From an uncultured virus (IMG/VR IMGVR_UViG_3300025141_013938) (Duplodnaviria; Heunggongvirae; Uroviricota; Caudoviricetes), in the IMG/VR virus record IMGVR_UViG_3300025141_013938: a stretch of DNA of 64,000 bases; one strand, 5' to 3'. A program made the translations under genes and the position numbers. Positions 16,492 to 58,354 of this stretch are shown one piece after another. The notes beneath the pieces are model-generated. The model ran no database searches. It saw only the letters and a list, made by a program, of their open reading frames with translations, and was not told where the DNA came from. Numbering within the stretch: position 1 is the stretch's first letter; each line of letters begins with the position of its first letter.

Positions 16492-16503
16492 AAGAGCTTT
16501 GTA

Positions 16504-16533
16504 TTGAAAATCTTTATTAATTTTAAATATAAT
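16504..16533 (+). promoter_or_regulatory. Sigma70-like promoter upstream of the NeuA fusion
   Basis: TTGAAA-N18-TATAAT, then a GGAGG RBS. Confidence 0.55.
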
Positions 16534-16553
16534 TCTATTGTTCGGAGGCTTGA

Positions 16554-17792: not shown

Positions 17793-17849
17793 TAAATTTT
17801 TATAAATCTTAAAGCTTATAACTTATAATTCATATAGTAGGAGACAAAA

Positions 17850-21402: not shown

Positions 21403-21405
21403 TTT

Positions 21406-24314: not shown

Positions 24315-24349
24315 CAGTATAATATAAAGTAGAATAGTGAGATAGCATT

Positions 24350-25893: not shown

Positions 25894-25896
25894 AGT

Positions 25897-28441: not shown

Positions 28442-28442
28442 A

Positions 28443-34513: not shown

Positions 34514-34537
34514 TGTATGCGCTGTATTTGATATAAT
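34509..34537 (+). promoter_or_regulatory. Sigma70-like promoter (extended -10)
   Basis: TGTAAT-N17-TATAAT with TGn before the -10 element. Confidence 0.55.
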
Positions 34538-34564
34538 TAATATATTCATATTTAAGACCTTAAA

Positions 34565-35587: not shown

Positions 35588-35608
35588 AGCGGAAGTTATG
35601 GAATAATT

Positions 35609-36421: not shown

Positions 36422-36472
36422 TAATGGCTAGAGGAAAGACGATAAATTGAATTTTTTATTGTGTGTGCATAA

Positions 36473-37108: not shown

Positions 37109-37138
37109 ACATCAAAATAAGTAAGAATATAATAGAGC

Positions 37139-37924: not shown

Positions 37925-38676
37925 AAAAGAAACATATATTTATTGGAGGACACCATAATAGTTGTACCACAATAGTACGTAAGCTCATTCTTTGCAAAGA
38001 TTACATGGAAGCCGATAGATATCCTGACTATATGGGAAAATATTTTCATAGTGAATTTTTTAAACGATGGCATGCTAAGAAAGATAATTTTGAATTTTTT
38101 GAAAATAAAGTTCGAAGAGACACAGGTGGCCTCGAATACTGGGTTATCAAGCACAACCACTTGATGTTGATGATACCTGAGCTTAAAAAGGCATTTCCAG
38201 GCTCAGTATTTATAATGTGTATCAGAAATCCAATTGATCAATTACGAAAACCACAAATGAATTATGAGTGGTACGGAAATGCTAGAAGTTGGGATCCACC
38301 GCTTGTAGAAAAATTTGGACTCTATGGGGAGTGGGTAGATGAGGGAATAAAAAATGCTGACCATATTATTCGACTTGAAGATCTCTTATTTGATACAAAA
38401 GATACAATTAAAAAGCTATATCAATTTTTAAAATGTGATGATAGAGTAGATGATGATATTTTACAAATGATTCTTCCTCCATCCTCAACTGTTTTAGATG
38501 GGCATAGACCCGCTAAGAGCACTGGGAGTGACCCATTAAGCATCCTAAAGGTCACTGAGGCAGAATTAGATAATTACATTATAGATTCGTCTGGGACAAT
38601 ACTGCGTGATGCACTCAAAGAGTATTGTATCCGTTTAGGCTATGATATGCCCGAATACTTGAAAAGAAAAAAATAA
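37921..38676 (+). CDS. Sulfotransferase-like P-loop protein
   Basis: IFIGGHHNSCTT (5'-PSB-like), IMCIRNPID (3'-PB-like), IRLEDLL..LYQFL. Confidence 0.6.
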   Translation: MKKKHIFIGGHHNSCTTIVRKLILCKDYMEADRYPDYMGKYFHSEFFKRWHAKKDNFEFFENKVRRDTGGLEYWVIKHNHLMLMIPELKKAFPGSVFIMCIRNPIDQLRKPQMNYEWYGNARSWDPPLVEKFGLYGEWVDEGIKNADHIIRLEDLLFDTKDTIKKLYQFLKCDDRVDDDILQMILPPSSTVLDGHRPAKSTGSDPLSILKVTEAELDNYIIDSSGTILRDALKEYCIRLGYDMPEYLKRKK

Positions 38677-38722: not shown

Positions 38723-39562
38723 ATGAGTAAAATAGAAAAAACTTTCCCAACAGGAAAGCAACATGTATCATTTTCTGAGATCAAATGCTGGAAAGAGTGC
38801 ACATGGCGACATAAGCTAGTTCATATAGACAAAGTTGATATTTTTGAGCCCTCTCCTTACTTAGATTTTGGAACTGCCGTTCACTCTGGATGTGAGGTCC
38901 TTTTAGAAAAGAATGATCTTGATTATGATAGCCTCTTAAAAGATATTGTGGATGCTTGGGATAAGCATGGGTTTGGAAAGCCAGAGTGGTATGAAAAAAT
39001 GCCTGGCTGGTACAAGCATGTTCCTGTAGAAGAGTGGTGTACATGGGCATCTAATATGTGGAGCGAGATTCCAAAATTTTTAGATGAGACGTTTCCAGGC
39101 TGGGAGTTTGTATCTGCTGAGGAAATGTTATATGAGCCTGTTGAAAATAAGGATATTAACTTCAAAGGATACATAGACGGGATTATAAGAGTTCCTAATA
39201 AAGCTGGCAATGGGTACAAGTACTGGATCATTGACTGGAAAACAGCGCAGTCTTATGGGTGGAGAAGGTCTAAAAAGCAAGATATTTTAATGACTGCACA
39301 GTTAATGCTATATAAGCACTTTTGGTCTAAGAAGCACTCTGTTGAACTTAAAGACATAAGATGTGGTTTTATATTATTAAAGCGCGGCGGTAAGCCAGGC
39401 AAGGTCTGTGAGCTTGTGACAGTATCTGTGGGACCTAAGTCTCTAGAAAAAGCCCTAAAGATAATGAATAATATGATAACATCTGTTAGAAGAAAAATGT
39501 TTCTAAAGAATAGAGATTCTTGCAGGTACTGTCAGTTTAAAGACACAGAACACTGTACGTAA
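38723..39562 (+). CDS. PD-(D/E)XK nuclease (RecB/Cas4-like exonuclease)
   Basis: SFSEIKCWKEC, FGTAVH, GYID, IIDWKT, QLMLY and C-terminal CRYC..C (Fe-S staple-type cysteines). Confidence 0.85.
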   Translation: MSKIEKTFPTGKQHVSFSEIKCWKECTWRHKLVHIDKVDIFEPSPYLDFGTAVHSGCEVLLEKNDLDYDSLLKDIVDAWDKHGFGKPEWYEKMPGWYKHVPVEEWCTWASNMWSEIPKFLDETFPGWEFVSAEEMLYEPVENKDINFKGYIDGIIRVPNKAGNGYKYWIIDWKTAQSYGWRRSKKQDILMTAQLMLYKHFWSKKHSVELKDIRCGFILLKRGGKPGKVCELVTVSVGPKSLEKALKIMNNMITSVRRKMFLKNRDSCRYCQFKDTEHCT

Positions 39563-39608: not shown

Positions 39609-40859
39609 ATGACCCAAAAGAAAAAAATTCTTGTTCTATCTGATCATGCACTATCAACTTCTGGAGTTGGCTGTCAGACAAGACACTTAATTAACGGACT
39701 GTTAAATAAAGATGGACACTGGACATTTCGACAGTTTGGTGCGGCTCTCAAGCACATAGATTATGAAACTGTTGTTGTCAATGAAGATTTTATCATCAAG
39801 CCCATTGATGGATTTGGAGATAGAAATCTTATAAGGATCACTTTAGCAGCTGAGAAGCCTGACATACTATTAATCTTCACTGATCCTAGATTTTTTATAT
39901 GGTTGTTTGAGATGGAAGACGAAATACACCAGATTTGTCCAATTGTTTGGTGGCATGTGTGGGATAACTATCCTTATCCAAAATTTAATGAATCTCTCTA
40001 TGAGGCAACTGACTCAATTAACTGTCACTCTCACCTGACATATGAAATGGTTAGCAACGTTTTTCCAGAAAAGACAAACTTCATACCTCACACACTGCCC
40101 GACGAGATCTTTCACCCCATCAGTGAAAAAGAGAAGAGAGAATTTAAGGGTAATGTTCTAGGTGAATCTAGAAAAGATCACTTCATTGCGTTTTGGGTTA
40201 ATAGAAATGCAAAGAGAAAAAGACCAAATGATGTACTTTTTTCGTGGAAGCTATTTTTAGACATGCTAGAAGAAAATCATGGGCATAGAAATGCAACACT
40301 TATAATGCACACTGATCCCTATGATCAAGAGGGCCCAAATCTAATCACAACAGCTGAGATGTTTAAAATACATGAAAATGTATTTTTCTCAACAGATAGA
40401 CTAGAATTTGAGAAAATGAATATACTTTACAATATATCAGATGTGACATTAAATGTGAGTTATGCTGAAGGATTTGGTCTTTCTACACTAGAATCAATGC
40501 AGTCTGGGACACCTATAATTGCTGTTAAAACAGGTGGGCTAACTAGGCAGGTCGTTGATCACAGAGACGGAACAGAAAACGGTGTAGCCCTAGATGTCGA
40601 GTGTAAGACACTTGTGGGTTCACAACAGGTGCCTTACATATATGAGGACTACTCACGTCCAGAAAGTATAGCAGGTGCTATTTTAAAGATCTATAATCTT
40701 TCTCCCGAAGAATCAATAAGTCTATCTAACAAAGTAAGAGAATATGCATTAAGTGAATTCTCTCACCAAGACATGATAGATAAGTGGCATGATACACTTT
40801 TAGATGTGTCTGATAATTGGGAGAAGAGATATAAAAGATGGGAATATTTTTCTCTATAA
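39609..40859 (+). CDS. Family 4 glycosyltransferase
   Basis: SGVG, NRNAKRK, EGFGLSTLESMQSGTPII. Confidence 0.88.
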   Translation: MTQKKKILVLSDHALSTSGVGCQTRHLINGLLNKDGHWTFRQFGAALKHIDYETVVVNEDFIIKPIDGFGDRNLIRITLAAEKPDILLIFTDPRFFIWLFEMEDEIHQICPIVWWHVWDNYPYPKFNESLYEATDSINCHSHLTYEMVSNVFPEKTNFIPHTLPDEIFHPISEKEKREFKGNVLGESRKDHFIAFWVNRNAKRKRPNDVLFSWKLFLDMLEENHGHRNATLIMHTDPYDQEGPNLITTAEMFKIHENVFFSTDRLEFEKMNILYNISDVTLNVSYAEGFGLSTLESMQSGTPIIAVKTGGLTRQVVDHRDGTENGVALDVECKTLVGSQQVPYIYEDYSRPESIAGAILKIYNLSPEESISLSNKVREYALSEFSHQDMIDKWHDTLLDVSDNWEKRYKRWEYFSL

Positions 40860-40877: not shown

Positions 40878-42065
40878 ATGATTGAAAATTCTTTTGTAGT
40901 AAAGAAAAAGGTAATAATCAGAGCTCCGCTGCTATCAATAAGTGGCTATGGAGTTCATTCAAGACAGATATTCAAGTGGCTTGAAACAAGAGATGACCTT
41001 GATGTTCGAACACAGATAGTCCAGTGGGGAAATACAAGCTGGATGATTAATTCAGAATTTGAATCAGGAGCCGTTGGTAAGATAATGAGCTTATCATCAA
41101 ATCATGATTCTCAGCCTGACATATCATTTCAGGTTCAGTTGCCTGACGAGTGGGATACTGAACTAGCAAAGCTCAATATAGGAATTTCTGCTGTTGTTGA
41201 AACTGATAGGTGTAACCCTGCATGGATAGAAAATATAAATAAGATGGATCACGTCATTGTTCCGTCTGAGCACATAAAAAATACTATTTTATCGACAGGA
41301 ACCGTCACAACACCGTTACACGTGATACCAGAGTGGTACATAGAAGAAATAGATAAAGACAGTGTAGCCGAATTAGACATAGAGGTTAGTACATCATTTA
41401 ACTTTATATCAATTGCTCAATTTACTGGAAATGATCCTGAAAATGATAGAAAAAATCTCTTCTATACAGTTAAGTGGTTTTGTGAGGCATTTAAAGGTGA
41501 CGAGGATGTGGGACTCATACTAAAAATAAATCACGGAAGAGGAACCACAATTGATAGACACATAACAAGAAATAAAATGAGACAGCTTGTGTCTGAGGTG
41601 AGGGATGGAGAATTTCCAAAGATTCATATAATCCACGGAAATTTATCATCTGAAGAGATGTCATCACTATACAGATTGCCAACTATCAAAGGCTTGATAA
41701 GTCTAACAAGAGGTGAGGGATTTGGCCTCCCTCTTCTTGAGGCAGCAGCGTCTGGAATTCCTGTCATCGCAACTAATTGGTCAGCTCATCTTGATTTTCT
41801 AAATCTTGGAAAATTTATACCTATTGACTATAGCATGGTAGAAATACCAGAGTCTCGAATTGATAATAGAATATTTTTAAAGGGCATGTGCTGGGCTGAG
41901 CCAATTGAGGCTGATTTTAAAAAGAAGATTATTAAGCTGAGACATAAGCATGACATACCAAAGCGCTGGGCACTAGATCTGTCTAGTCGAGTGAGAGATA
42001 TTTTTTGTTCAAAGTCTATAATTTCACAATATGACAGCATGATAAATGCCATCTTAGAAGATTAA
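40878..42065 (+). CDS. Family 4 glycosyltransferase
   Basis: SGYG, VPSEH, RKN, RGEGFGLPLLEAAASGIPVIATNWS. Confidence 0.88.
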   Translation: MIENSFVVKKKVIIRAPLLSISGYGVHSRQIFKWLETRDDLDVRTQIVQWGNTSWMINSEFESGAVGKIMSLSSNHDSQPDISFQVQLPDEWDTELAKLNIGISAVVETDRCNPAWIENINKMDHVIVPSEHIKNTILSTGTVTTPLHVIPEWYIEEIDKDSVAELDIEVSTSFNFISIAQFTGNDPENDRKNLFYTVKWFCEAFKGDEDVGLILKINHGRGTTIDRHITRNKMRQLVSEVRDGEFPKIHIIHGNLSSEEMSSLYRLPTIKGLISLTRGEGFGLPLLEAAASGIPVIATNWSAHLDFLNLGKFIPIDYSMVEIPESRIDNRIFLKGMCWAEPIEADFKKKIIKLRHKHDIPKRWALDLSSRVRDIFCSKSIISQYDSMINAILED

Positions 42066-46019: not shown

Positions 46020-47879
46020 ATGGCACAATCAAAAAAAATAAAAAATGTGAGATCTAACCAGAGAACATACCTTGCAAGAGATTTTGACTCTTTAAGGGCT
46101 GAGCTAACTCAATACGCAAAGATATATTTCAGTGATCAGATGACAGACTTTTCTGAAAACGGTGTAGGGGGACTGCTCATTGAGATGGCAGCGTTTGTGG
46201 GTGATACACTATCTTATTACCTAGATCATCAATTTAATGAGTTAGACATACAGACTGCTGTTGAAAGTCAAAACATAGAGAAACTCATAAGAGCATCAGG
46301 TGTGAAAATAACTGGAGCATCTCCCGCAACTGCAACTATAAATTTTTATCTAGAGGCTCCAGCAGCCTATTCAAATAATGAGTATGTTCCGGATGTAATA
46401 GCTCTTCCCATAGTCAAGGCGGGCACACTTTTAACATCGACATCTGGTGTGCTTTTTGAGCTTGGAAAAGATATTAACTTTGCTGAAACTGATGCAGCTG
46501 GAAAGACTGTTGCAACATATCAGCAGATGAAGACCTCAACTGATTCGTCTGGAAATATAGTACCAGTAACTTTTTCTGTCATGCTATCTGGAGAGTGTAA
46601 GTCTGGAATATTAAAGACTCAGTCATTTATAATTCCAGACACATTTTCTCCGTTCATGACAGTCATGCTCAATGATGTTGATGTGACCGAAATCATCTCA
46701 GTCAGAGACTCAGATGGAAATACTTATCACGAGGTTAGTGCTCTGACACAGGATGTAGTCTATAAGCGAGTATTAAATGTTGCTTCAGACAGTGATCTAG
46801 CACCTGAGAATCTAGAGCTTGTGCCTGCACCGTATAGGTTTATTTCGACTATGAGTAGAAGATCAGGAAAAACAACAATTAGATTTGGTGGGGGCAGTGC
46901 TAGCTCTACAGATGATGATATCATTCCTGATCCTAGTGAAGTTGCTATCTCACTTTTTGGAGAGAGAAAGACATTTTCAAGATTCACAATAGATCCAAAC
47001 TCACTTCTAGAGACAAGAACACTTGGAATTGCTCCCAGAAATACAACAATAACAGTAAAGTATAGGGCTGGCGGAGGTCTATCACATAATGTCCCAGCAG
47101 GATCAATTAATACTATTTCTACACTCTTTACACGGTTTTCATCAGGTGCTCCATCTAGCACGATTTCTTCAGTTAGATCCTCCATTGAGTGTTCAAATAT
47201 AAACCCCTCAGCTGGAGGTGAGGCTCCATTGACGCTAAATGAGATGAGATCTACAGCACTAGCTTACAGAAATTCTCAAGCAAGAATTGTGACTAGAGAA
47301 GATCTTATTGCAAGAGTCTATGCAATGCCATCTAACTTTGGAAGAGTTTTTAGAGTAGGAGTTCATACAAACCCAAATAATCCTCAAGCAGTGACAATGT
47401 GCATTATAAGCAGAAACTCAAGTGGAAATCTAGTCACCTCACCAGATGCTTTAAAACAAAGTCTGAGGCTATATATCAATCAATACAGGCTGATATCAGA
47501 TGCAATTGATATATGTGAGGCACGAGTAATTAATGTGGGAATAGATTACGGTGTTGTAATAGACGAAGTATCTAACAAAAATCTAACAATACAAAATATC
47601 AATAAGTCATTACAAGACTATATGGTAATTGAAAATTTTCAAATTGATCAACCAATAATCACATCTGATCTTGTATCTTTAATAATAAACACTGTAGGTG
47701 TTGTGTCACTGGTGAACTTTAAAGTTAAAAACACATCTGGAGTAGTTGACGGCAGAAGGTATAGTCAGGAATTATTTTCTATTCCGTACAATACAGACAG
47801 GGGTATTATCATGCCCACTCCAGGTTCAATTTTTGAGTTAAAATATCCTAAAGATGATATTGTTGGTTTTGCGAGATAA
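46020..47879 (+). CDS. Baseplate wedge protein, gp6/baseplate-J-like
   Basis: YLARDFDSLRAEL, DFSE..G..LIEMAAFVGDTLSYYLD, YRAGGG, GGE, QARIVTRED. Confidence 0.85.
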   Translation: MAQSKKIKNVRSNQRTYLARDFDSLRAELTQYAKIYFSDQMTDFSENGVGGLLIEMAAFVGDTLSYYLDHQFNELDIQTAVESQNIEKLIRASGVKITGASPATATINFYLEAPAAYSNNEYVPDVIALPIVKAGTLLTSTSGVLFELGKDINFAETDAAGKTVATYQQMKTSTDSSGNIVPVTFSVMLSGECKSGILKTQSFIIPDTFSPFMTVMLNDVDVTEIISVRDSDGNTYHEVSALTQDVVYKRVLNVASDSDLAPENLELVPAPYRFISTMSRRSGKTTIRFGGGSASSTDDDIIPDPSEVAISLFGERKTFSRFTIDPNSLLETRTLGIAPRNTTITVKYRAGGGLSHNVPAGSINTISTLFTRFSSGAPSSTISSVRSSIECSNINPSAGGEAPLTLNEMRSTALAYRNSQARIVTREDLIARVYAMPSNFGRVFRVGVHTNPNNPQAVTMCIISRNSSGNLVTSPDALKQSLRLYINQYRLISDAIDICEARVINVGIDYGVVIDEVSNKNLTIQNINKSLQDYMVIENFQIDQPIITSDLVSLIINTVGVVSLVNFKVKNTSGVVDGRRYSQELFSIPYNTDRGIIMPTPGSIFELKYPKDDIVGFAR

Positions 47880-47881: not shown

Positions 47882-49462
47882 ATGTATAGAATATTAACTG
47901 CTAGTAAAGATACATACATTACAGATAAAATCATTGACAACAGTTTCAGAGCAACTGATGCAAATGTAGGGCAAGCTGCAACTCTAGATTTATTTAAGCT
48001 CTACGCTGAATCAACATCAGGATCAGTCACATCTCCTATGGAGATAAGTCGGGCACTGATAAAATTCGACCTGGATCCTCTGAGAAGATTGACAGGCTCT
48101 TTTCTAGACATCAGCCACTCTTCTTTTAGGTGCACATTAAATCTGTCTGATGTGTATGGTGGCCAAACTTGTCCTTCAAATTTTAAACTAATTGTTTTCC
48201 CACTTTCCCAGTCATTTGATGAGGGAATGGGTAGAGATATTGTTAGCTTTTCTGATTTAGATTCTTGCAACTTCATAACAGCTTCTACTAATGGCGGAAC
48301 AGCAGTTCCGTGGTTTGTTTCAGGAGCTAATAAACAGGGCCTTCTACATTCAGACAATATTGATATTATATCTAGCGGAAATCTTCTTGATGGAAATGGA
48401 GTTGTTAACTTGTGGAGACAAAAAACTTTTTCAACAGGGGAGGAAAATCTATCTGTTGATGTCACAACAATTATTTCTGCAACTCTTGCAAATAGAATGC
48501 CAGACCATGGATTCAGAATCTCATATTCAGGATCTCAAGAAACTGACACTATCACTAGATTTGTTAAGAGATTTGGTTCTCGAAATAATACATCATTTTT
48601 TAATAGACCTCAGCTTATTGTTAAATTTAATGATTCAATTCAGGACAATCATAGCTCATTTCTTTTTAATGTATCTGGATCACTTTTCTTAAATAATTTT
48701 CACAGAGGCAGGTACGCAAATATTTTAACAGGAACCCGAGGAAAGATGCATGGTGTTTCTGGAAGTAATTCTCTACTTCTCAGGCTCACATCAGGGTCAA
48801 TTGGAGCTTCAGGGACATTTTTTCAAAAGATAATAACAGCATCCCAGCATCAGATAGGACAAAACTATATTACAGGAATTTATTCTGCATCTTTTTGTGT
48901 ATCACAATTCACAGGAACAAATCCGCCAAATCGAGGAGAAATTAGATTCAATAGTGCCCTAGCTAATGAGATTAAAAATGCAGGATCTGCAACATTCACA
49001 CAGATCTGGTCATCTTTAGATCAAACTGTTGCATTTTTAACAGGAAGCTTAGTTATTAATACTGTCAATAGAAACTCATTTAGCAATCGAGCAAAGAGGC
49101 TTTTAACATCTATAACAAATATGAAAGATGAGTTTGGAATAGATGATAAATACAGATTTAGAGTTTTTGTAGAAGATATAGACAGGCCAGTCAGATATAA
49201 AAAAGTACCATTTGAAACTAAAAGCTCAATCTTTGATAGAATGTTTTATCAGATAAAAGACTTCAAGTCAGGAAAAATTGTTATTCCATTTGATACAACA
49301 TATAACTCTACACTTCTTTCAACTGATAAGGATGGAATGTATTTTGATATTTATATGGACACGCTTTTTAAGGGAACCGTGTTCACTGTAGATTTTCTTA
49401 TCAAGGCAGAGGGGTCAGATCTAATTTTTACTGATGTTGCAGCAAAGTTTAGAGTTGTCTGA
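47882..49462 (+). CDS. Virion structural protein (baseplate-associated, beta-rich)
   Basis: KDTYI..SRALIKFDL..RPQLIV pattern reminiscent of DNRLRE-type domains; follows the gp6-like gene. Confidence 0.55.
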   Translation: MYRILTASKDTYITDKIIDNSFRATDANVGQAATLDLFKLYAESTSGSVTSPMEISRALIKFDLDPLRRLTGSFLDISHSSFRCTLNLSDVYGGQTCPSNFKLIVFPLSQSFDEGMGRDIVSFSDLDSCNFITASTNGGTAVPWFVSGANKQGLLHSDNIDIISSGNLLDGNGVVNLWRQKTFSTGEENLSVDVTTIISATLANRMPDHGFRISYSGSQETDTITRFVKRFGSRNNTSFFNRPQLIVKFNDSIQDNHSSFLFNVSGSLFLNNFHRGRYANILTGTRGKMHGVSGSNSLLLRLTSGSIGASGTFFQKIITASQHQIGQNYITGIYSASFCVSQFTGTNPPNRGEIRFNSALANEIKNAGSATFTQIWSSLDQTVAFLTGSLVINTVNRNSFSNRAKRLLTSITNMKDEFGIDDKYRFRVFVEDIDRPVRYKKVPFETKSSIFDRMFYQIKDFKSGKIVIPFDTTYNSTLLSTDKDGMYFDIYMDTLFKGTVFTVDFLIKAEGSDLIFTDVAAKFRVV

Positions 49463-49470
49463 GGTGGTCG

Positions 49471-52400
49471 GTGTCGAATTTTAAAATAAACTCAAGACCT
49501 AGACTATTCAACCCATCAGTTGTCCGTGGTCAGTTCAAAGTTGCTAAGCCTTCAAAAATATCTCTATCTCAGCTAGGAGATACAAATTTTCAAAGCACAT
49601 CATCTTTTAGATATGACACTGCTCGCTCACCCCTCAAGTCTACGCAAGAGATCTCGCTAGACTGGTCAAGATTTGAAAATCACACATTTTTTAACTCAGC
49701 AGAATCAAAAGTCAACATAGCTTTTCAGAGAATTATAAATGAATATCCCTTTGATGGAACTTTGAAAGAGGTAGAGGCATTTGAAGACTCTCTCACCGGA
49801 TATGAAAAATATATCTTGGATATATTTCCTAAGTCTGCTGGATTTCTAAATTTTTCTGGAACATCAGAAAGTGAAAATCCAGCATCTGGATATGGTGAAA
49901 AATTAGGAACATACATATCAGTTCAAGACAGAGCGGGAGTTCTATTTCCAGATTTTTCTAAGAATAGAACAGCAGAATCAATTCTTGATTTCGGAAAAGA
50001 TAGCTTTTCTATCGAGCTAGAGCTATATCCGGCCCCCAGAGAAAATGAAAATCAAATAATCTGTCAAAAGAGATCAAATTCTAATGACTCAATAACTGTT
50101 GCGCTATCAGAATCTTCTTCGACATCTAAGTGTGATCTCATATTTTCAGTGACATCAGGATCTGCAACATTATTTGCAAGCTCTTCAATAGAAAAGGGAA
50201 GATTCAATCATATCTGTACAACATTTGACAGATCTCCCGGTCAAGGTATCTTAAAGATATTTGTAAGTGAATCTCTCAGGGTGACATCTTCAATGGCTTT
50301 TGAAATGGGAAGTCTTTCTTTTGGCAGAGCAAATTTTATAATAGGCTCTGGTTCTTCTGTAAAGACCCCAGAGTGGAGCACTCCCCACGGAGAAAAAGAA
50401 TTTATTCCCAAGGTAACATTTTCTGGATCGATGGATGAGGTTCGAGTTTTTCACTCTACTAGAAGTGATATTGATCAAAAAAGAGATTCACGCCGTGGAA
50501 TATATGCCAGCAATGACCTCAAGCTATATTTTAAATTTAATGAACCCACTGGATCTTTTAATCTGAAGTCTGTTGTCCTAGATAGTTCTGGAAACTCTCT
50601 TCATAGTGAGATTAAAAATTTTGAGATAGGGCTAAGAATTTCAGGATCTATTTCTAACCCTCTGTCTTCTGAAAATCTAAAGAGAAATCCTATTCTCTTT
50701 CCCTCCTACTATAAAATTTCTAACCTCAATAGAAAACTTTTAGTATCTGCTAGCTTATATGATAGAGAAAATCCAAATTTAATCACTAGTTTGATTCCTA
50801 TGCACTTCTTACTAGAGGGACAGTATAATCAAGGATTAGATAGTGAGAAGGGTGACATAGGCTCACCTATTTCTGGAAAATCTATTCCTGGATCTGCTAG
50901 GATCGGGTCAGCTCAATACCTAACAGCATTTCTTCTCATATGGGCTAAGTTTTATGATGAGATGAAGATATTTGTTGATCATTTTTCACGAGTGCTCTCA
51001 GTTGACTATGATGATAATCTTTCAATCACTGATAAATTTTTACCGTTTGTTGCGGATTATTATGGATTTACGTTGCCGTCACTTTTTTCAAATGTTGATC
51101 CAGTACAGTTTATTAACGGTGATGACATACAAAAGACATATTCTCAATCAACTAATTCTATAAAGTATGTTCAAAGTCAAATCTGGAAAAGAATTCTAAT
51201 AAACCTTAATGATATAACTACGTCGAAAGGAACAACTTACAGCATACGGTCTCTTTTAAGATCAGCAGGAATTAATCCAGATAATATATTCAATATTCGA
51301 GAATATGGTGGTCCAACTAAAAGATCTCTAGCGGGTCGTAGGCAGACCAAGTCTGAAACTGCAACAAGCCTTGATTTCTCAGGTAGCCTTAACCCATCTT
51401 CTTTCACTCCAGATACCCAGGGATTTTCTAGTGATATTCCACACCTGGTGTCACCATTTCTATCTGCCTCTAGGGTAGAGGTGGGATATCCAGAACAGGT
51501 TGGTACGATGGTCTCTAAAGTTAGATATCCGCCACATGGAATATCTAGTGATCCCAGTGATGGGCTATTAACATCAGGATCATTTACATATGAGGCAATC
51601 TATCAGTTTGAAAAAAATAAGGATCATCCCGGAGAACAAAGTCTTGTACGATTCCATGTAACTGGTACTTCATCTCCGTCTAATGTAAACGGTGTCCTGG
51701 CAAACGTGACTGTTGTTTCTGGAGCTCAGAATTCAATGACATCTAGTGGTGATGATTTAAAACTATTTGTCAGGTCTGACTCTAATTCTTCAACTTCACC
51801 AACACTAGCACTTATATTGACCGGACTTAATATTTTTGATGGAAACCTGTGGAATGTATCTTTTGGACGAACACGGTCTGATGATAGACCCGAAACAGAT
51901 TCACAAACATATCTTACTAAGAGGTCATCAGCTGTTCAGTCTTCTTCTTATTTTTTAAGATGTGCAAGACAATCTTACGGAAGCGTGAGTCAAATATTTA
52001 TGACATCGTCATATTTTATGTCTGCACCAGTTGTAGCATCATCAGATGATTCATTTCAAAAGATCTCGACAGCATATAATGTTTCTGGTGCATTTATTGC
52101 AATAGGCTCTCAGTCACTAGGCGGAGCAGCTTCTGGTCGCTTTCTTAATTCTGTAGATGATTCTGGCCAATATAGAAATGCCCTATTTACTAAATTTTCA
52201 GGACAGGTGTCTCAAATAAGATTTTGGTCTAACGCCCTCAGTGAAAGATCATGGATAGAACATGTCCGAAGCTTCAAGTCACTCGGAGTAGAAAATCCTC
52301 TTATTAATTTTAACTTTAATGATTTCTCAACAGGTTCATTTGGGAGACTCCGTGTCAATGCATCAACAGATCAGAGAATTTTAACTGCAGGATCAGATAG

Positions 52401-53073
52401 AAAGATAAGAATATTTGATTTCTCACAAAACGGATATCACCTTAGCGGCTCTGGATTTGAAAAAAATACAGATGCAATAGGATCTGAAACATTTTATTTT
52501 AGTTATCTATCACCTGCATTTGACATCTCTCAGACAGACAATAAGGTCAGAGTGAGAAGTTACCAAGATCCAGAGCTGATATCTCTCAGTGAATATGCAA
52601 CATCTACACCTACATATGAGGTGAGAAAAAGTGAGGAACCTGATGACGATGCAAGATTTAGAATAGAGATGTCATCAGTTAGTGGCCTTAATGAGGATAT
52701 CATGAGAATATTTGGCTCGCTAGACTTTTTTGATGATGCTCTCGGAAGGCCTAATCTTTTATTTGATGAGTTCTACCCTGACCTCGACCAGATCAGAAAG
52801 ATCTACTTTAATAGACTCAAAGAGAAGCCTGACTTACAAATCTTTTTTGACATGTTTAAATGGTTCAGTTCAGCATATGGTGATCTTTTAGGCCAGCTTA
52901 TACCAAAGAGAACAAAATTTTTAGGCGTAAACTTTGTAATAGAGTCGCATGTAATAGAAAGAAGTAAGTTTAGATACTTATTTGATGAAATTTATCTAAA
53001 AGCACTCTTCAGAGACAATGATAGGGGAAATCTATTACTTTCTCAGATTGTTGGACACTTATGTAAATTTTAG
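49471..53073 (+). CDS. Large baseplate/tail protein with LamG-like domains
   Basis: FNHICTTFD..FSGSMDEVRVF..LYFKFNE (LamG-like); IWKRILINL..SKGTTYSIRSLL (gpI/gp7-like segment); FSGQVSQIRFWS. Confidence 0.6.
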   Translation: MSNFKINSRPRLFNPSVVRGQFKVAKPSKISLSQLGDTNFQSTSSFRYDTARSPLKSTQEISLDWSRFENHTFFNSAESKVNIAFQRIINEYPFDGTLKEVEAFEDSLTGYEKYILDIFPKSAGFLNFSGTSESENPASGYGEKLGTYISVQDRAGVLFPDFSKNRTAESILDFGKDSFSIELELYPAPRENENQIICQKRSNSNDSITVALSESSSTSKCDLIFSVTSGSATLFASSSIEKGRFNHICTTFDRSPGQGILKIFVSESLRVTSSMAFEMGSLSFGRANFIIGSGSSVKTPEWSTPHGEKEFIPKVTFSGSMDEVRVFHSTRSDIDQKRDSRRGIYASNDLKLYFKFNEPTGSFNLKSVVLDSSGNSLHSEIKNFEIGLRISGSISNPLSSENLKRNPILFPSYYKISNLNRKLLVSASLYDRENPNLITSLIPMHFLLEGQYNQGLDSEKGDIGSPISGKSIPGSARIGSAQYLTAFLLIWAKFYDEMKIFVDHFSRVLSVDYDDNLSITDKFLPFVADYYGFTLPSLFSNVDPVQFINGDDIQKTYSQSTNSIKYVQSQIWKRILINLNDITTSKGTTYSIRSLLRSAGINPDNIFNIREYGGPTKRSLAGRRQTKSETATSLDFSGSLNPSSFTPDTQGFSSDIPHLVSPFLSASRVEVGYPEQVGTMVSKVRYPPHGISSDPSDGLLTSGSFTYEAIYQFEKNKDHPGEQSLVRFHVTGTSSPSNVNGVLANVTVVSGAQNSMTSSGDDLKLFVRSDSNSSTSPTLALILTGLNIFDGNLWNVSFGRTRSDDRPETDSQTYLTKRSSAVQSSSYFLRCARQSYGSVSQIFMTSSYFMSAPVVASSDDSFQKISTAYNVSGAFIAIGSQSLGGAASGRFLNSVDDSGQYRNALFTKFSGQVSQIRFWSNALSERSWIEHVRSFKSLGVENPLINFNFNDFSTGSFGRLRVNASTDQRILTAGSDRKIRIFDFSQNGYHLSGSGFEKNTDAIGSETFYFSYLSPAFDISQTDNKVRVRSYQDPELISLSEYATSTPTYEVRKSEEPDDDARFRIEMSSVSGLNEDIMRIFGSLDFFDDALGRPNLLFDEFYPDLDQIRKIYFNRLKEKPDLQIFFDMFKWFSSAYGDLLGQLIPKRTKFLGVNFVIESHVIERSKFRYLFDEIYLKALFRDNDRGNLLLSQIVGHLCKF

Positions 53074-53081
53074 GATCAGAT

Positions 53082-54005
53082 ATGTCAATAAAACCATTTG
53101 TAGATAGACCAAAAGTTGATATAGGCCAGGATGTCACTATTCTGCCTGCCTCTGGCGGGATGAATACTAGTGAGATAGATAGATTTAGGCAGGGAGTCAG
53201 CATGCGGCACTGGCGTGACTTTAAGTGCTCTCTAGTTCCAATGATCACGTCTAAGGGGTTTATACACAATGCTAGTGCAAGGATGGATTTTTCGCTCAAC
53301 AAGTCAGACTACGGTCAGCCAAAACTATTTGAAGATCTAGGAAACAACGGTGTATTCAATGGAATCTTCTCTCCTTTTGATGACATAGTAGGTGTATTCA
53401 GCGGAAAAGACTTCATAGAGGATCCAGGGACTCAGATGTATCCTAATGTTATGGTCAGCCCAAATTGGCTAGATCCTGCTATGATGGACGGAGTATTAGA
53501 CCCACTTCAGATAAGACATCAGATGAGCAATACTAATGCTGAAGGACCGTTTTCAGCTCATGGCATAAGAGGTGCCCTGATGCCGAATATTGGAAATGAG
53601 ATACTTGGCAGGGGAACCTTTATATGGTCTGTTATTCCATTTGAACCAGAAGCTAAGAATCCACCGTATTATGACTCACAGGATGTACCTATGGAAATTA
53701 CGTCTCCGACAGGAGATAAATTTGTATTATCATTTCCTGGATTTGACTATCCTGAGGAGACACAAGTCGAGCCATTTGATGACACTGTTCTCTCTGAGAA
53801 GATAGAAAGTCAGCAATTTAATATACTTAACACACTATCTGGCTCTGTATTAGGAGCCGGCGAGTTCGGAATATATCAGAAGTCTGCAACAGTCGGGTTT
53901 ATCTATAGGGACGGAAACTATATCATAAAGAAAGGCCAGATAGAGACTGGTGTGAAACGAGTCATGGGAACTGACTCTATAGCATTTGGAGGGTTCCTTA
54001 AGTAA
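53082..54005 (+). CDS. Hypothetical virion protein
   Basis: 307 aa ORF inside the structural operon. Confidence 0.55.
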   Translation: MSIKPFVDRPKVDIGQDVTILPASGGMNTSEIDRFRQGVSMRHWRDFKCSLVPMITSKGFIHNASARMDFSLNKSDYGQPKLFEDLGNNGVFNGIFSPFDDIVGVFSGKDFIEDPGTQMYPNVMVSPNWLDPAMMDGVLDPLQIRHQMSNTNAEGPFSAHGIRGALMPNIGNEILGRGTFIWSVIPFEPEAKNPPYYDSQDVPMEITSPTGDKFVLSFPGFDYPEETQVEPFDDTVLSEKIESQQFNILNTLSGSVLGAGEFGIYQKSATVGFIYRDGNYIIKKGQIETGVKRVMGTDSIAFGGFLK

Positions 54006-57000
54006 TGCCACGATTACAATTAGCCTCATATGACCTAAGTGATACGTTTCAAGACTCGAGTGGAAATGTCTACTCATACCATAGCGGACAGGATCTAAAA
54101 GTCTGGATTCGTCCCGCTCCTGACGAACCAAAAGATCTGAGTAGAAATAATCTATCTTGCGAGTACGATGATGATCCGCCTATCTCTGATGCAACAATTG
54201 GTAGTAAGTCTTATCCTGTGATAGGTGATCAGGCCAGCAGCCCTGGTGTTATAGAAGTCTCGAACTCGACCGGAGACCTCTCATTTACCAGCCTGCCAAG
54301 CGCGGGAACGCCAACGACATCTTCAGATAGACCATTTTCAATAAGTATGTGGGTGAAAGTAGATTCGCCGCACGCTTCGGGCACAGGATATATAGCCTGG
54401 AAGCCAAGCTTATCATACGGAGAGTATGGGCTCATCATAGCCACCGACGACTCGCTGCGATTCCAGCTCTACGACGACGATAACGATGCCTCCCAGTTCG
54501 TGCTCACCACCGGGGAAATCCCATTAGGTCAGTGGAATCACATAGTTGTAACATATGACGGTCGAGGGGGAACCGGTGCAGCGACCGTCACCGCTGCCCT
54601 GGGCCTGAAAATCTATATGAATGGATCAGACTACTCTGGGTCCCGGACCTACGCCGGCAGCTACAAAGGAATGCAGCCTAATTGGGGTGCTGATCTAGTC
54701 ATACGAAATTTCGCGCCCGCGAACTCGGCTGTTTTTAAGGGTGAGATTGCAGAGATCGCTCTGTGGAATAGAGAGCTACCTGAAGTAGATATTCTCACAA
54801 TATATAACGCAACACGAAACGGTGCCTATGATCTATTTACCGGATATCTCAATAATCCAGTTAGAACAATCGTAAGAAGCAGAGACAATGCGACAGGATC
54901 ATACCCATCAGTTCTAAGAACCACTGGATTTAAGCAGAGCACACCAGATCCATTTGATGATAACAGGACAGTTGTATTTCACACGATAAAAAAGTTTAGA
55001 AAGTTGGGCGCTAATAGGCAGGCGGTCTTCACAGATCCGCTCATGGATGTCCACTATCCGGTCATGCTCACAAAGGTAGATCACGACAAGTACTATAGGA
55101 ACTGGGTATCAACACCTAACACATCTGGGTCAATCATCGCATCAGGTAGTGTGGGACCATTCATATCTCTACAGGGACTAGAGCCATCAATAAATCAGCA
55201 CAGAGACTTCACACCGTTTAATGAGAGCAGGGTCTACATAGACCCAGGAAGCACATTTTACATGACAGGAACGAAGAGGACAACCTATCCTGGCTTCACA
55301 TCTCCACTAGAGGACAAGGTCCAGATAGTGATACCCCTTCCAAATGTAAGTGATAAGATCTGTAGCAGGTGGAATAGTGACTTCGGCGGTGATGTAGGGG
55401 TAGGCACAAACTTTATTGAGCCAGGTGTGACAGATTCAACAGATGTAGAGGTCACACCGACATCACAGTATAGTGGATTTAGCTACTACAACTGGATTAA
55501 TGGAAGATGGGAGGACATAGGCCTCTATGATCCTGCGACTGGGATAGCACGCAAGACACACATGTTCTATCTAGCTGCTGAGAAAAGACAGGGCAGCACT
55601 TATCTATATCCAGAGTTTCTTCCATATGCGAGTGATGGGAAGCACAAGCAGCCGTGGCACATCCAGCCACCGTCTTATCAGTTTAAGATGTCACATCACA
55701 CAATGTACATGACAAGGACATATAATGACTTAATCATGACAGGTGCCTATGGAAAGATAGGCGCGCCCACAATTGCAGCCGCCGCTCCGCAGCATCCTAG
55801 GTATCACGCAACTTCATCACAAGCCCTGTCTCTCTCTAGTTACATAAAGCATCCATTCCTGCTTGAGAAGGCAGTTATTGAGATACCGGTCATCGTCAGA
55901 AGAAAGAATGGTGCGTCATACCCACCTGGGGGTTCATATAAGGTCGACGGCGGTGACAGAGACATAGATAATTACACATTTTTCATGTACAGACAGCAGA
56001 GAAGACCGTCATTTAAGATCAATATGCCGACTAGTCCCTCTGATCAGCAGAACTATATAGAAAGAGATAGCGCAGCAGATGTAAGCGGTAGCACAAGGTT
56101 TCTAGTCATGAGTGCTTCAGCTGCTTTTTATAATAGCCCCTCGATAAGATCGTCAGCCCTACAAAGTGAAATATCATCTCTAGGGCTACCACACACACCA
56201 TCCTTTGAATATGACTTTAACCTAGAGGTAGACAGTGACAGCATCCCGAGCGAAGGTGCTGAAGCAGCATTCACAGGATCTATTCGTCTAGAGTTTATTC
56301 CAGCAGTTGCAAATAGAGGAGACTGGGGAGGATCCCGATTCGCAATCAGGAGCGGTACAGTTCCGGGTGAAGCCACCAAATTCCCCAGCACGTCGTGGCA
56401 GCCGATCTCAGCATATACCTCAGCGGTCATACAAGATTTCTGGCCAGGCGGCACCACAGACACCTCCCAGATGCAATTACACTCGAGCTCCTGGGCATAC
56501 ATGCAAGCTGCAGGAGAATGGCGAGTAGCAGGGCCCATCCCGACAACGAATGATGCCGGGCCTTATTCTCTATCTCCCTTCGAGGCTAGGTGGGGGAATC
56601 TAATTCAGGTGACCCAGCACTCGACAGAGAATACAGACCCTGAAATTATTATCTCAGAACCGGGTGCTAACAGACCGTTCACGGGTCGTGCAGGCTTCAG
56701 CACTGATGAGCGGTCCACAGGCTCATTGGGCTATTACCCCGAGACTGGGGCTGGTGCTGGCGACAACTTCCCGAGGACAGGGTACATATGCCGAGGAATC
56801 AAGGTTGATCAGATATCTCCAAATACACCCTCTCCATACCTGCTACTTCCTGAGGATGAGATAGTCATTGGGATCGATGCAAGCATATCATCTACGATGG
56901 TGTCTGGGACACAGGACCAGCTTGGATTTGATAAGAGTAACCATGACATGACCCACGCGGCCGGAAAGACCAGGTGCAATGCTCTTAACATCATGTCTGG

Positions 57001-58354
57001 ATCATTCATGAAGATCATGGCTGGAGAGGCAAAGCTCACGCTCTTTGGCTCGCTCATAAAGGAGGACAAGGAGCACATGTCGAGCCTCGACCAGAACCTC
57101 ACGTCAGATGCCATTCACCATGACATCCATCAGGTCGGTCCGCTTGATCAGTACATGATAGGGTCAGCTAAAGACTATCGAGGTACTTACATCGATAGAT
57201 ACATAACTGGATCAATGAGCGTTCGAGGGAGACCTCTCGCTGACGGAAGAGCTGGAACACGTGGTGTCAGCATGCTTTTTTCGTCAGAGGATGATATCGT
57301 GCCCAATTTCAAGGGTCCCGTTTCAAGACTGTCAAGGGGAGGTCTCAATTACCTAACTTCACAAAATTTATCTGGAAGTCTTCTTCGAGGTGTCAAGCTA
57401 GTTGACAAGTCTGAGAGATTTTATGACACACTTCTTCCAGACTATGTTGAGTATGCTAGTCTTCACAACGTCGACAGCGACGGTGACAAGACCGCGCTCG
57501 GAGTCTTCTATGTATCTAATAATTTATCTAGAGGAGTAACTAAGGTAAACAGACAGGGACATACGGTAATATATGCGTTTAGTAGCATGTGGGAGGGACT
57601 CTGGGGTCCGCCAGTTATCGAAGACACCGGTCAAAATCCTTATACCACACAACCGACACTAAGATCATATAGTGATGGGAGGATCCTCCGGTACAGATCA
57701 GGCAGAGAGCTTCCATATGCCACCAACCCTACAAGAATGTCTTCAGATAGATTTATATCTATAGGTGCGAGATATGATGATGCGATCTGGGAGGCACCCA
57801 AATCGTCACACAGTGTATATATTTTTGCAGATTCAAGAAGAGACAACCGGCTTGTTAATGCATTATTTTATGAGGTAGGGTGGAAGTTTAGGTGGTTACA
57901 ACAGAATCATCCTGCCGCCGCGAAATCCAATCAGCTTGTAACTGGCTCTAAAGCATTTGGACAGTGTTCTTTGGGAGACTCAACATGCAGAGGCTACATG
58001 TATGGAATAATGTCAACCACTCCGCTAAATTCATCAGCAGTCTTTAGGCCAGATCATTTCGGTCAGTTCAGAGACATGCTAGAGCAGAGAAGAGATGGGA
58101 CATTTTGGAGATCTCCGTGGCGTCGGACTCCATCCGGACGCCTGACCAGAGTAAGAGGAAGAAAGTCAGATCCAGCTGTCGAGGTTCAATTTGTTAACAT
58201 GGAGGATGGAATGACACTAGTTGATCCCTACTCAACAAATTGTTCAAATCTCAGCCAAGCAGCAACATCATCAATTCCATATGTTGACGGAGAGATTAAA
58301 AATAGCATACCTGGAAGCGGAGGTGCAATAGTGTCCTTCGTGTTAGCGACATGA
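54005..58354 (+). CDS. Large virion protein with an N-terminal LamG/concanavalin-A-like domain
   Basis: FSISMWVK, GQWNHIVVTYDG, KIYMNG, FKGEIAEIALWNREL. Confidence 0.65.
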   Translation: MPRLQLASYDLSDTFQDSSGNVYSYHSGQDLKVWIRPAPDEPKDLSRNNLSCEYDDDPPISDATIGSKSYPVIGDQASSPGVIEVSNSTGDLSFTSLPSAGTPTTSSDRPFSISMWVKVDSPHASGTGYIAWKPSLSYGEYGLIIATDDSLRFQLYDDDNDASQFVLTTGEIPLGQWNHIVVTYDGRGGTGAATVTAALGLKIYMNGSDYSGSRTYAGSYKGMQPNWGADLVIRNFAPANSAVFKGEIAEIALWNRELPEVDILTIYNATRNGAYDLFTGYLNNPVRTIVRSRDNATGSYPSVLRTTGFKQSTPDPFDDNRTVVFHTIKKFRKLGANRQAVFTDPLMDVHYPVMLTKVDHDKYYRNWVSTPNTSGSIIASGSVGPFISLQGLEPSINQHRDFTPFNESRVYIDPGSTFYMTGTKRTTYPGFTSPLEDKVQIVIPLPNVSDKICSRWNSDFGGDVGVGTNFIEPGVTDSTDVEVTPTSQYSGFSYYNWINGRWEDIGLYDPATGIARKTHMFYLAAEKRQGSTYLYPEFLPYASDGKHKQPWHIQPPSYQFKMSHHTMYMTRTYNDLIMTGAYGKIGAPTIAAAAPQHPRYHATSSQALSLSSYIKHPFLLEKAVIEIPVIVRRKNGASYPPGGSYKVDGGDRDIDNYTFFMYRQQRRPSFKINMPTSPSDQQNYIERDSAADVSGSTRFLVMSASAAFYNSPSIRSSALQSEISSLGLPHTPSFEYDFNLEVDSDSIPSEGAEAAFTGSIRLEFIPAVANRGDWGGSRFAIRSGTVPGEATKFPSTSWQPISAYTSAVIQDFWPGGTTDTSQMQLHSSSWAYMQAAGEWRVAGPIPTTNDAGPYSLSPFEARWGNLIQVTQHSTENTDPEIIISEPGANRPFTGRAGFSTDERSTGSLGYYPETGAGAGDNFPRTGYICRGIKVDQISPNTPSPYLLLPEDEIVIGIDASISSTMVSGTQDQLGFDKSNHDMTHAAGKTRCNALNIMSGSFMKIMAGEAKLTLFGSLIKEDKEHMSSLDQNLTSDAIHHDIHQVGPLDQYMIGSAKDYRGTYIDRYITGSMSVRGRPLADGRAGTRGVSMLFSSEDDIVPNFKGPVSRLSRGGLNYLTSQNLSGSLLRGVKLVDKSERFYDTLLPDYVEYASLHNVDSDGDKTALGVFYVSNNLSRGVTKVNRQGHTVIYAFSSMWEGLWGPPVIEDTGQNPYTTQPTLRSYSDGRILRYRSGRELPYATNPTRMSSDRFISIGARYDDAIWEAPKSSHSVYIFADSRRDNRLVNALFYEVGWKFRWLQQNHPAAAKSNQLVTGSKAFGQCSLGDSTCRGYMYGIMSTTPLNSSAVFRPDHFGQFRDMLEQRRDGTFWRSPWRRTPSGRLTRVRGRKSDPAVEVQFVNMEDGMTLVDPYSTNCSNLSQAATSSIPYVDGEIKNSIPGSGGAIVSFVLAT

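Follow-up and report, generated by a model that had tools for sequence, protein, structure and literature searches.

A hydrophobic-flanked Ser/Thr-Gly/Ala-Ser/Thr motif in outward-facing virion proteins of a marine myovirus clade, a candidate acceptor for phage-directed O-glycosylation

A 64-kb stretch of DNA from an uncultured member of the Caudoviricetes (IMG/VR record IMGVR_UViG_3300025141_013938; hereafter the window) encodes several large virion proteins in which the tripeptide [ST][GA][ST] occurs far more often than composition predicts. To judge from the sequences, selection maintains the motif hydrophobic-[ST]-G/A-[ST]-hydrophobic in the outward-facing virion proteins of a large marine myovirus clade: outer baseplate proteins, fibres and, in the relative G002, one sheath paralogue. 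We put forward, as a plausible but tentative reading, that soluble enzymes of the phage itself O-glycosylate these proteins in the cytoplasm, with the motif as acceptor or recognition element. The evidence, each part of it observed directly, consists of the excess of the motif, its conservation, its hydroxyl specificity, its restriction to outer proteins, the synteny of a pair of glycosyltransferase (GT) genes, and the absence of export genes. The window holds 54 large open reading frames (ORFs), every one on the plus strand; those for the virion proteins discussed here (lengths in amino acids, aa) are as follows.

110..3460, plus strand: 1116-aa fibre-like repeat protein; 20 motifs, mostly hydrophobic-hydrophobic-hydrophobic-SG[ST]
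3460..5712, plus strand: 750-aa fibre-like repeat protein, paralogue of the preceding one; 20 motifs
46020..47879, plus strand: gp6-like (Baseplate_J) inner baseplate protein, 619 aa (phrog_219, PF04865); equally rich in Ser/Thr and used as an internal negative control
47882..49462, plus strand: 526-aa virion protein, directly after the gp6-like gene; all-beta, multi-domain; 16 motifs
49471..53073, plus strand: 1200-aa virion protein with a Laminin_G_3 (ConA-like) domain at residues 173-332; 15 motifs
53082..54005, plus strand: 307-aa protein between the 1200- and 1449-aa proteins; weak motif excess only
54005..58354, plus strand: 1449-aa virion protein with a Laminin_G_3 domain at residues 107-263; 16 motifs

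Motifs were counted on the translated ORFs, overlapping copies included, and compared with the number expected from the composition of each protein. Against expectations of 2.5, 5.3 and 7.4, the 526-, 1200- and 1449-aa proteins have 16, 15 and 16, and 11 of the 16 in the 526-aa protein fall within residues 265-389. The fibre proteins, with 20 motifs each, exceed expectations of 9.5 (110-3460) and 7.7 (3460-5712), and the 307-aa protein has 2 against 0.7. The gp6-like protein carries 2 where 2.8 are expected (shuffle z of -0.5), and the 39 proteins of the glycan island, nuclease and GT pair together carry 19 where 18.5 are expected. A sequence-only reading of the same DNA had counted by hand 16, about 15, about 16 and about 2 motifs in the 526-, 1200-, 1449-aa and gp6-like proteins, which proved exact on recount.

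The enrichment over composition that it claimed also survives global and local shuffling (z of about 9, 3-4 and 3 in the three proteins). With 2000 shuffles per protein, over the whole protein, within 30-residue blocks and within 15-residue blocks, z was 8.9, 8.2 and 8.8 for the 526-aa protein, 4.3, 3.4 and 3.2 for the 1200-aa protein, and 3.3, 3.4 and 3.1 for the 1449-aa protein. Because the values from block shuffles barely differ from those from whole proteins, local composition is ruled out as the cause of the excess. A blind scan of tripeptides in a reduced alphabet ranked hydroxyl-small-hydroxyl first of 186 classes in the 526-aa protein, first of 269 in the 1200-aa protein and third of 294 in the 1449-aa protein. 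Collagen-like repeats were rejected as a source in the window, where none of the 30 ORFs of at least 300 aa reaches eight consecutive Gly-x-y triplets. The general O-glycosylation sequon of the Bacteroidota, D-[ST]-[AILVMT], was considered as well and is not enriched (z from -1.1 to 0.8 in six proteins).

The sequence-only reading had described the motif-rich proteins as unrelated. At the level of BLAST this holds, with two exceptions: the fibre paralogues resemble each other, and the Laminin_G_3 regions of the 1200- and 1449-aa proteins are weakly alike (E of 0.003). It had also stated that the fibre repeats carry SG at both ends. The repeat units of the two fibre proteins do have two SG[ST] each, spaced 22-27 residues apart; they lie outside the part of the window with which that claim was concerned, and their copies sit in internal repeats and are therefore not independent.

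The excess is reproduced in orthologues, which were drawn from 80 viral loci. Among 8000 scored candidates, more than 2248 are homologues of the 526-aa protein, every one of marine or aquatic metagenomic origin, and 75 orthologues contain 968 motifs against 188 expected (5.15 fold). The corresponding figures are 853 against 243 (3.5 fold) in 47 orthologues of the 1200-aa protein, 322 against 146 (2.2 fold) in 20 of the 1449-aa protein, and 63 against 31 (median z of 1.0) in 25 of the 307-aa protein. The 80 gp6-like orthologues have 120 motifs against 184.5 expected, a ratio of 0.65, and other orthologue sets likewise show no excess (gp25-like 0.46, the 572-aa protein 0.92, GT-A 0.58, GT-B 1.0, nuclease 0.32). 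The sites themselves are conserved in position. In an alignment of 65 sequences of the 526-aa family, 12 of the 16 sites hold a motif in at least 35 sequences, with a mean count of 13.6 against 2.65 expected. In the 1200-aa protein, 13 of 15 sites are kept in at least 14 of 33 orthologues, and three Gly-type sites are kept in 31-33 of the 33.

The enrichment depends on hydroxyl residues at the outer positions. The form [ST]G[ST] exceeds expectation 5.3 fold in the 526-aa family and 4.6 fold in the 1200-aa family, whereas the turn-type tripeptides [ND]G[ND], [ND]G[ST] and [ST]G[ND] stand at 0.9-1.4 in the same two families; with Asn/Asp-Gly tripeptides near 1, a general propensity for turns was discarded as the only cause. 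Replacing the middle residue by V/I/L, a charged residue or N/Q gives ratios of 0.66-1.16 in these families, and [ST]A[ST] is enriched about 5 fold in the 526-aa family only. Little or no variation is seen in the middle Gly at G266, G217, G305, G284 and G294. Homologues have Ser/Thr in 85% of residues at the hydroxyl positions of motifs and in 65% at Ser/Thr positions elsewhere; of the changes seen, 300 of 558 at motif positions and 471 of 2059 elsewhere are to the other hydroxyl residue. Since the Ser codons inside the motif are mixed, selection acts on the protein, and a cause at the level of DNA is ruled out. The earlier observation that a hydrophobic residue often precedes the motif was borne out in all four protein groups, which BLAST does not relate to one another: one is found before 53-73% of sites (background 29-35%) and after 53-60%.

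The AlphaFold model of the 526-aa protein (pLDDT, the predicted local distance difference test score, of 79) is all-beta. Its first domain is predicted to be a jelly roll like that of carbohydrate-binding modules, resembling the polysaccharide-binding modules 8wab and 7vbo; the remainder resembles FN3/Ig-like sandwiches, and the best viral matches are uncharacterised myovirus proteins. The model of the 1200-aa protein is weak (pLDDT of 61), its lectin-like domain excepted. Across the two models the motif sites fall mid-strand, at strand starts and ends, in tight hairpins, in two helices and in loops. Ala-type sites favour regular structure, Gly-type ones edges and loops. One Gly-type site, S229-G230-S231 of the 1200-aa protein, forms a two-residue hairpin between strands 220-229 and 232-241 (pLDDT of 87-89). 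In the 526-aa model, motif sites show no closeness to strand boundaries beyond that of residues in general (0.50 against 0.53). In the secondary structure of the models the motif thus has no single context, and its sites are not uniformly turns, which bears on the turn part of the possibility raised by the sequence-only reading, that the motifs are buried beta-turns. If such a site were extended, hydrophobic residues at -1 and +3 would put both hydroxyls on the opposite face of the strand.

We compared the motif with the occurrence of the GT pair in whole or near-whole phage genomes. The only matches of the gp6-like protein in the cultured-phage search were to Flavobacterium phage immuto (33% identity), Microcystis phage Mel-JY01 (31%) and the 484-kb uncultured LR756508 (31%), and relatives of the clade have Flavobacterium, Rhodothermus (the host of phage RM378) and Microcystis as hosts. 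For ORFs of at least 300 aa, the observed/expected ratio of a strict motif (a hydrophobic residue, [ST][GA][ST], then a residue other than Gly) and the number of ORFs enriched at a Poisson p below 1e-3 were as follows.

Window: ratio 3.80; 4 of 30 ORFs
immuto: ratio 3.05; 4 of 54 ORFs
RM378: ratio 2.75; 3 of 51 ORFs
Mel-JY01: ratio 2.38; 2 of 55 ORFs
HTVC008M: ratio 2.11; 1 of 48 ORFs
SPO1: ratio 1.86; 0 of 38 ORFs
P-SSM2: ratio 1.65; 1 of 75 ORFs
Syn9: ratio 1.41; 0 of 51 ORFs
LR756508 (first 400 kb): ratio 1.39; 0 of 103 ORFs
phiKZ: ratio 0.88; 0 of 87 ORFs
T4 (99 kb): ratio 0.68; 0 of 32 ORFs

In the carriers of the GT pair (the window, immuto, Mel-JY01 and RM378), 13 of 190 large ORFs are enriched at this level, against none of 208 in T4, Syn9, phiKZ and SPO1. 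None of 22 structural and control proteins of T4, including gp7, gp10, gp12, gp34 and gp37, is enriched. With the plain motif [ST]G[ST] and collagen-like proteins removed, the five pair genomes (the window, G002, immuto, Mel-JY01 and RM378) give ratios of 1.89-2.63 and seven others 0.93-1.75, while Asn/Asp-Gly controls lie at 1.0-1.4 in all 12 genomes. PF00534, the family of both GTs, has one match in P-SSM2 and none in Syn9, HTVC008M, phiKZ or SPO1; for PF00535, P-SSM2 again matches, HTVC008M does so only below the cut-off, and Syn9, phiKZ and SPO1 give nothing.

The annotated tail spike of immuto (record 97614-100775; L081 35305-38466) has 56 motifs against 20 expected. This spike repeats strings of the window fibres (V-S-G-S-L, I-T-A-S, F-T-G-S-F), and no BLAST similarity between them was found. 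In G002, a 160-kb relative, the enriched proteins are three orthologues of the motif-rich proteins, three unnamed proteins and one of two tail-sheath paralogues (15 motifs against 5.0, p of 2e-4), and a 670-aa head protein has 8 against 3.2. The terminase, portal, DNA polymerase, ribonucleotide reductase and SbcC of this genome are at expectation. The two sheath paralogues of G002 (L173) are adjacent (10929-14153 and 14188-17313; 1074 and 1041 aa) and have long extra N-terminal parts, and the match of its major head protein (4199-6211) to a head family covers residues 404-653 only.

The GT pair, the nuclease gene before it and the sugar island lie between the fibre genes and the baseplate genes.

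5778..38676, plus strand: variable island for sugar synthesis and transfer, about 33 kb and about 37 genes (Pfam, NCBIfam)
38723..39562, plus strand: PD-(D/E)XK nuclease (PF12705), which travels with the GT pair and is syntenic in relatives
39609..40859, plus strand: GT-A, 416-aa GT4-type (Glycos_transf_1) glycosyltransferase (PF00534, E of 1.9e-12, 47.5 bits)
40878..42065, plus strand: GT-B, 395-aa GT4-type glycosyltransferase (PF00534, E of 3.1e-8, 33.8 bits)

Both GTs score above the gathering cut-off of PF00534 (26.4 bits). They occur in the same order, directly upstream of the baseplate genes, in every one of the 31 relatives whose upstream flank reaches 8.5 kb, and the identity of GT-A among relatives (61-71%) is above that of most virion proteins. 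E287 and E295 of GT-A are invariant in 30 sequences; in 33 sequences of GT-B, E280 is invariant and E288 nearly so. These residues correspond to Glu-x7-Glu in the C-terminal domain, which we take to be a conserved motif of retaining GT4-type enzymes, and from the retained Glu pairs both GTs look active. GtfB is the non-catalytic partner of GtfA, and an arrangement of that kind, with one dead partner, is unlikely here since GT-A and GT-B both keep the Glu pair. GT-A is a candidate priming enzyme. By sequence, the closest solved relatives of the GTs are ordinary GT4 enzymes, including chlorovirus B736L, to which GT-A has a weak match (3oy2, E of 2e-4).

Among 50,697 phage records, homologues of GT-A at an E of 1e-8 were found only in immuto, Mel-JY01, LR756508 and RM378. 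GT-B adjoins GT-A in immuto, in Mel-JY01 and, weakly, in RM378; it was not found in LR756508, Syn9, HTVC008M or T4, the last of which was searched for GTs with GT-A, GT-B and the GT-B profile only. The order nuclease-GT-GT recurs in immuto (L178 5965-9884), beside a different sugar island and in a genome neighbourhood that differs from that of the window. The GT-A homologue of Mel-JY01 (record 83444-84905; L088, L089) is spread over two ORFs in different frames, of 198 and 313 aa and about 115 bases apart, and is either a frameshifted gene or a two-piece enzyme.

The island encodes GT2 and GT4 enzymes, dTDP- and GDP-sugar enzymes, several methyltransferases, one sulfotransferase, a NodU-like carbamoyltransferase and a B12-radical SAM C-methyltransferase. 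A 197-aa fragment at 15898-16491 resembles GT29 (sialyltransferase). Genes of the pseudaminic/legionaminic acid (Pse/Leg) type of nonulosonic acid synthesis are PseB-, PseC-, NeuB/PseI-, PseF- and PtmA-like, the PseF-like domain being fused to a methyltransferase at 16554-17792. Their NCBIfam scores, in bits, are below the equivalog cut-offs given in brackets: PseB 270.9 (407.75), PseC 201.6 (423.5), NeuB 249.7 (399.65), PseI 174.9 (340.25) and PseF 37.6 (205.7). Of the island genes, the upstream flanks of relatives keep only a UDP-glucose dehydrogenase-like one.

A Pfam search of the 54 window proteins found no flippase (Wzx), polymerase (Wzy), transporter or initiating phosphoglycosyltransferase family, functions that host enzymes could serve, and no window protein has more than one hydrophobic segment of 19 residues. 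The lack of export and lipid-carrier genes and of multi-pass membrane proteins points to a soluble acceptor; a lipid-carrier-dependent pathway for surface polysaccharide, of the Wzx/Wzy or ABC type, was considered, and none of its components was found in the window. Some of the island enzymes look truncated. The DegT-type aminotransferase (26613-27527) matches mainly positions 161-358 of a 360-position profile, the RmlD-like protein (25897-26616) has just 239 aa, and the 295-aa UDP-glucose dehydrogenase-like protein (32791-33678) matches the N-terminal and central domains but not the C-terminal one; these may be decayed or split genes.

A selected hydroxyl motif on outer proteins, a soluble GT4 pair and an island free of export genes together resemble what would be expected of a system of cytoplasmic O-glycosylation with a loose sequon. 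In the mechanism that we propose, the GT4 pair (39609-42065) would put the first sugar or sugars onto the Ser/Thr hydroxyls of the motif, and the variable island would supply and add further ones, a Pse/Leg-type nonulosonic acid among them. By extension, and more doubtfully, the marine myovirus clade may coat the exterior of its tails with phage-made glycans at a sequon, hydrophobic-[ST]-G-[ST]-hydrophobic, that the GT4 pair reads. Glycans would cover the outer baseplate, the fibres and the outer domains of the sheath, and their structure, with nonulosonic acids included, would differ between strains according to an exchangeable island of up to about 33 kb.

Several observations weigh against an acceptor role. 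Under a first-order null that preserves dipeptides, the 526-aa protein has 16 motifs against 8.8 (p of 0.018), the 1200-aa protein 15 against 11.4, the 1449-aa protein 16 against 10.8, and the fibre proteins 20 against 17.6 and 20 against 13.2. Most of the excess sits at the dipeptide level, as Ser/Thr beside Gly/Ala on either side; this null is conservative because the motifs themselves contribute to the dipeptide counts. Junctions of Ser/Thr with Gly are ordinary in beta proteins, several sites lie mid-strand in an overall mixture of secondary structure, and the requirement for a hydroxyl is also compatible with a role in hydrogen bonding. Collagen-like and fibre repeats can inflate counts: the single enriched ORF of P-SSM2 and an 805-aa protein of Mel-JY01 are collagen-like or His-repeat fibres, the latter (record 635-3052), with 114 motifs, consisting largely of Gly-Ser/Thr-Ser/Thr triplets in a collagen-like run of about 450 residues.

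The comparison between phages is qualified in the same direction. A baseline excess of [ST]G[ST], 1.2-1.75, is seen in pair-less phages other than T4, and the pelagiphage HTVC008M, which has no match to PF00534, has a 626-aa fibre with 17 motifs against 8.3 (strict motif, 9 against 2.0). The sequence-only reading implied that phages lacking such GTs would lack the enrichment; this stands for T4, Syn9, phiKZ and SPO1 but not for the HTVC008M fibre or the mild baseline. The pair genomes are the top five of 12 for [ST]G[ST] but form one broad lineage, their members having related gp6 proteins (31-33% identity) or belonging to the same wider group, and the association of motif and GTs is close to a single evolutionary event confounded by descent. 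The contrast offered by LR756508 is ambiguous: it has GT-A without a detectable GT-B and no enriched ORF, yet the 1400-aa protein after its gp6, in the position of the 1200-aa protein, has 7 motifs against 2.2. In RM378 the GT pair lies between a polymerase-like gene and the ribonucleotide reductase gene; its place among replication genes, together with the linkage to a nuclease, makes DNA a possible target of the GTs. We infer that the GTs act on protein, at the motif and with sugars from the island, and the acceptor is putative. Three tests, on the composition null, the turn context and the GT-less phages, neither refuted nor proved the proposal of an O-glycosylation acceptor.

A purely structural explanation is nearly as probable as the acceptor reading. 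It holds that unmodified [ST]-Gly-[ST] with hydrophobic flanks is a building element of beta domains and fibres, used at strand ends and tight hairpins and for hydrogen bonds from side chain to backbone, and that the proximity of the GTs is a coincidence of lineage. The frequent placement of Gly-type sites at strand ends or in two-residue hairpins such as S229-G230-S231 fits this explanation, as does the near-invariant middle Gly at several sites, which is typical of a constraint on the backbone. Asn and Asp are, however, the commonest partners of Gly in turns, and beside Gly in these families they are not enriched (0.9-1.4 against 4.6-5.3 for the hydroxyl residues); the sites also include mid-strand and helical ones, and in the 526-aa model show no preference for strand boundaries. 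The dipeptide-level nature of the excess, the repetition of the fibre copies, the baseline in pair-less phages with the enriched fibre of HTVC008M, and the common descent of the pair-bearing phages all speak for a structural element. Against it, the motif is not enriched in the 22 T4 proteins, in Syn9 (0 of 51 ORFs) or in the equally Ser/Thr-rich inner baseplate proteins of the same phages.

We consider it unlikely that the GTs and the island serve another target, such as phage DNA, an envelope glycan of the host or a small molecule, while the motif forms an unmodified functional surface, for example hydroxyl patches that bind polysaccharide. The linkage of the pair to a PD-(D/E)XK nuclease in the window and in immuto and its position in RM378 would suit DNA as the target, and DNA glycosylation by GTs of phages has been described (Pyle et al. 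2024 as cited in PMC12619734). In 31 of 31 relatives, however, the pair is directly upstream of baseplate genes, and the island of about 33 kb is equipped for nonulosonic, amino, methylated, carbamoylated and sulfated sugars. We know of no DNA modification as rich as this. For an envelope glycan, genes for export of surface polysaccharide would be expected, and none was found in the window. The jelly roll at the start of the 526-aa protein, like those of polysaccharide-binding modules (8wab, 7vbo), and the lectin-like Laminin_G_3 domains of the 1200- and 1449-aa proteins would agree with sugar binding, which usually relies on aromatic residues and not on Ser-Gly-Ser. Chance, an artefact of composition or a motif picked after the fact is very improbable: the motif class was chosen post hoc and the excess in the 1449-aa protein is modest (z of about 3), but z in the 526-aa protein is 8-9 under three nulls, the class ranks at the top of a blind tripeptide scan, and the result is reproduced at conserved positions in 75 and 47 orthologues.

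If the acceptor reading is true, phage tails would have their first sequon-directed glycosylation system, and a bacterial virus a hypervariable sugar coat. A motif read by the GT pair would imply that sugar-coated tails are common in the sea, given the more than 2248 metagenome members of the 526-aa family; the large lipopolysaccharide (LPS)-like islands of marine phages would gain a function, and acceptor sites would become predictable from sequence. Host recognition could change with such a coat, as could resistance to proteases and grazers and the tendency to stick to marine gels. The proposal is testable in three cultured phages that have both the pair and the motif excess (immuto, Mel-JY01 and RM378). 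Should the motif be structural only, it would still be a strongly conserved, hydroxyl-specific signature, useful for annotating the outer proteins of this lineage.

Genes for baseplate and tail proteins extend from 43497 onward, and in a PHROGs search of the window proteins only the gp6-like and 1449-aa proteins received names. Searches against cultured phages gave no DNA-level match to 46020-49462 by megablast and no tblastn match to the 526-aa protein or to the 750-aa fibre protein. A sequence search of the PDB gave nothing significant for the fibre protein (best E of 0.016) and no match for the profile of the 526-aa family. G+C content is 46-49% in the fibre genes (1-6000) and the 1449-aa gene (54000-58400), the latter at 47-48%, but falls to 30-37% in the island and to 35-39% in the tail genes nearby; the contrast suggests that the fibre genes and the 1449-aa gene, which are host-facing, were acquired or exchanged separately. 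Between the GT pair and the baseplate genes, a gene for a 110-aa protein with an N-terminal hydrophobic segment (42066-42398) is overlapped by 77 bases by the next ORF (42322-43116, with a TTG start as listed), the true start of which is probably further downstream. Both genes are conserved in relatives.

A full-text literature search, with most subscription journals outside its reach, found no description of a Ser/Thr-Gly-Ser/Thr sequon on phage particles, and to our knowledge glycosylated phage particles are known only from mycobacteriophages. Other systems offer partial parallels. The flagellins of Campylobacter, Helicobacter and Aeromonas are O-glycosylated with derivatives of pseudaminic or legionaminic acid, with no strict sequon. 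Like the modification proposed here, that of flagellin is cytoplasmic, independent of a lipid carrier and directed to many Ser/Thr, there on the exposed face of an assembled filament protein, and the window island has Pse-like genes. The flagellin system differs in its transferase, no Maf enzyme and none of the type of Caulobacter FlmG having been detected by Pfam in the window, and the Pse-like matches here are below equivalog cut-offs. In chloroviruses and giant viruses, capsids are glycosylated by virus-encoded soluble glycosyltransferases, mostly N-linked at atypical sequons. Like the window phage, these viruses carry their own genes for sugar nucleotides and transferases and use no secretory route of the host; their hosts are eukaryotic, and the proteins modified are those of the capsid rather than the tail. 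The motif also differs from collagen-like Gly-x-Thr glycoproteins in being isolated, flanked by hydrophobic residues and set in globular beta domains.

In mycobacteriophages, glycans are reported at the C-termini of capsid and tail-tube subunits (Freeman et al. 2023 as cited, in summary, in PMC12619734). Both cases concern a tailed phage with its own glycosyltransferases and with virion proteins as acceptors, candidate ones here. They differ in that the candidate sites here lie in a short internal motif of outer baseplate, fibre and sheath proteins, whereas those of the mycobacteriophages, as that summary has it, are C-terminal sites on capsid and tube. The window phage belongs with another host lineage and has a large island for sugar synthesis, and its glycosylation is a proposed one.

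A parallel for the motif itself comes from the bacterial autotransporter heptosyltransferases TibC and AAH, which act on TibA and AIDA-I (PMC4358343). Such an enzyme is soluble, works in the cytoplasm and modifies many Ser on a surface protein that is folded, beta-rich and repetitive, much as is proposed here. TibC, an iron-binding dodecameric heptosyltransferase that is reported to modify Ser and not Thr, differs from a GT4 pair, and its substrate is a bacterial adhesin (PMC4358343). It heptosylates folded TibA at Ser-313 (N-S-G-G) and Ser-322 (T-S-A-A) (PMC4358343). Each of these serines is followed by Gly or Ala, as in the phage motif, and by analogy TibC may provide a precedent for a soluble glycosyltransferase that recognises hydroxyl residues in such a setting.

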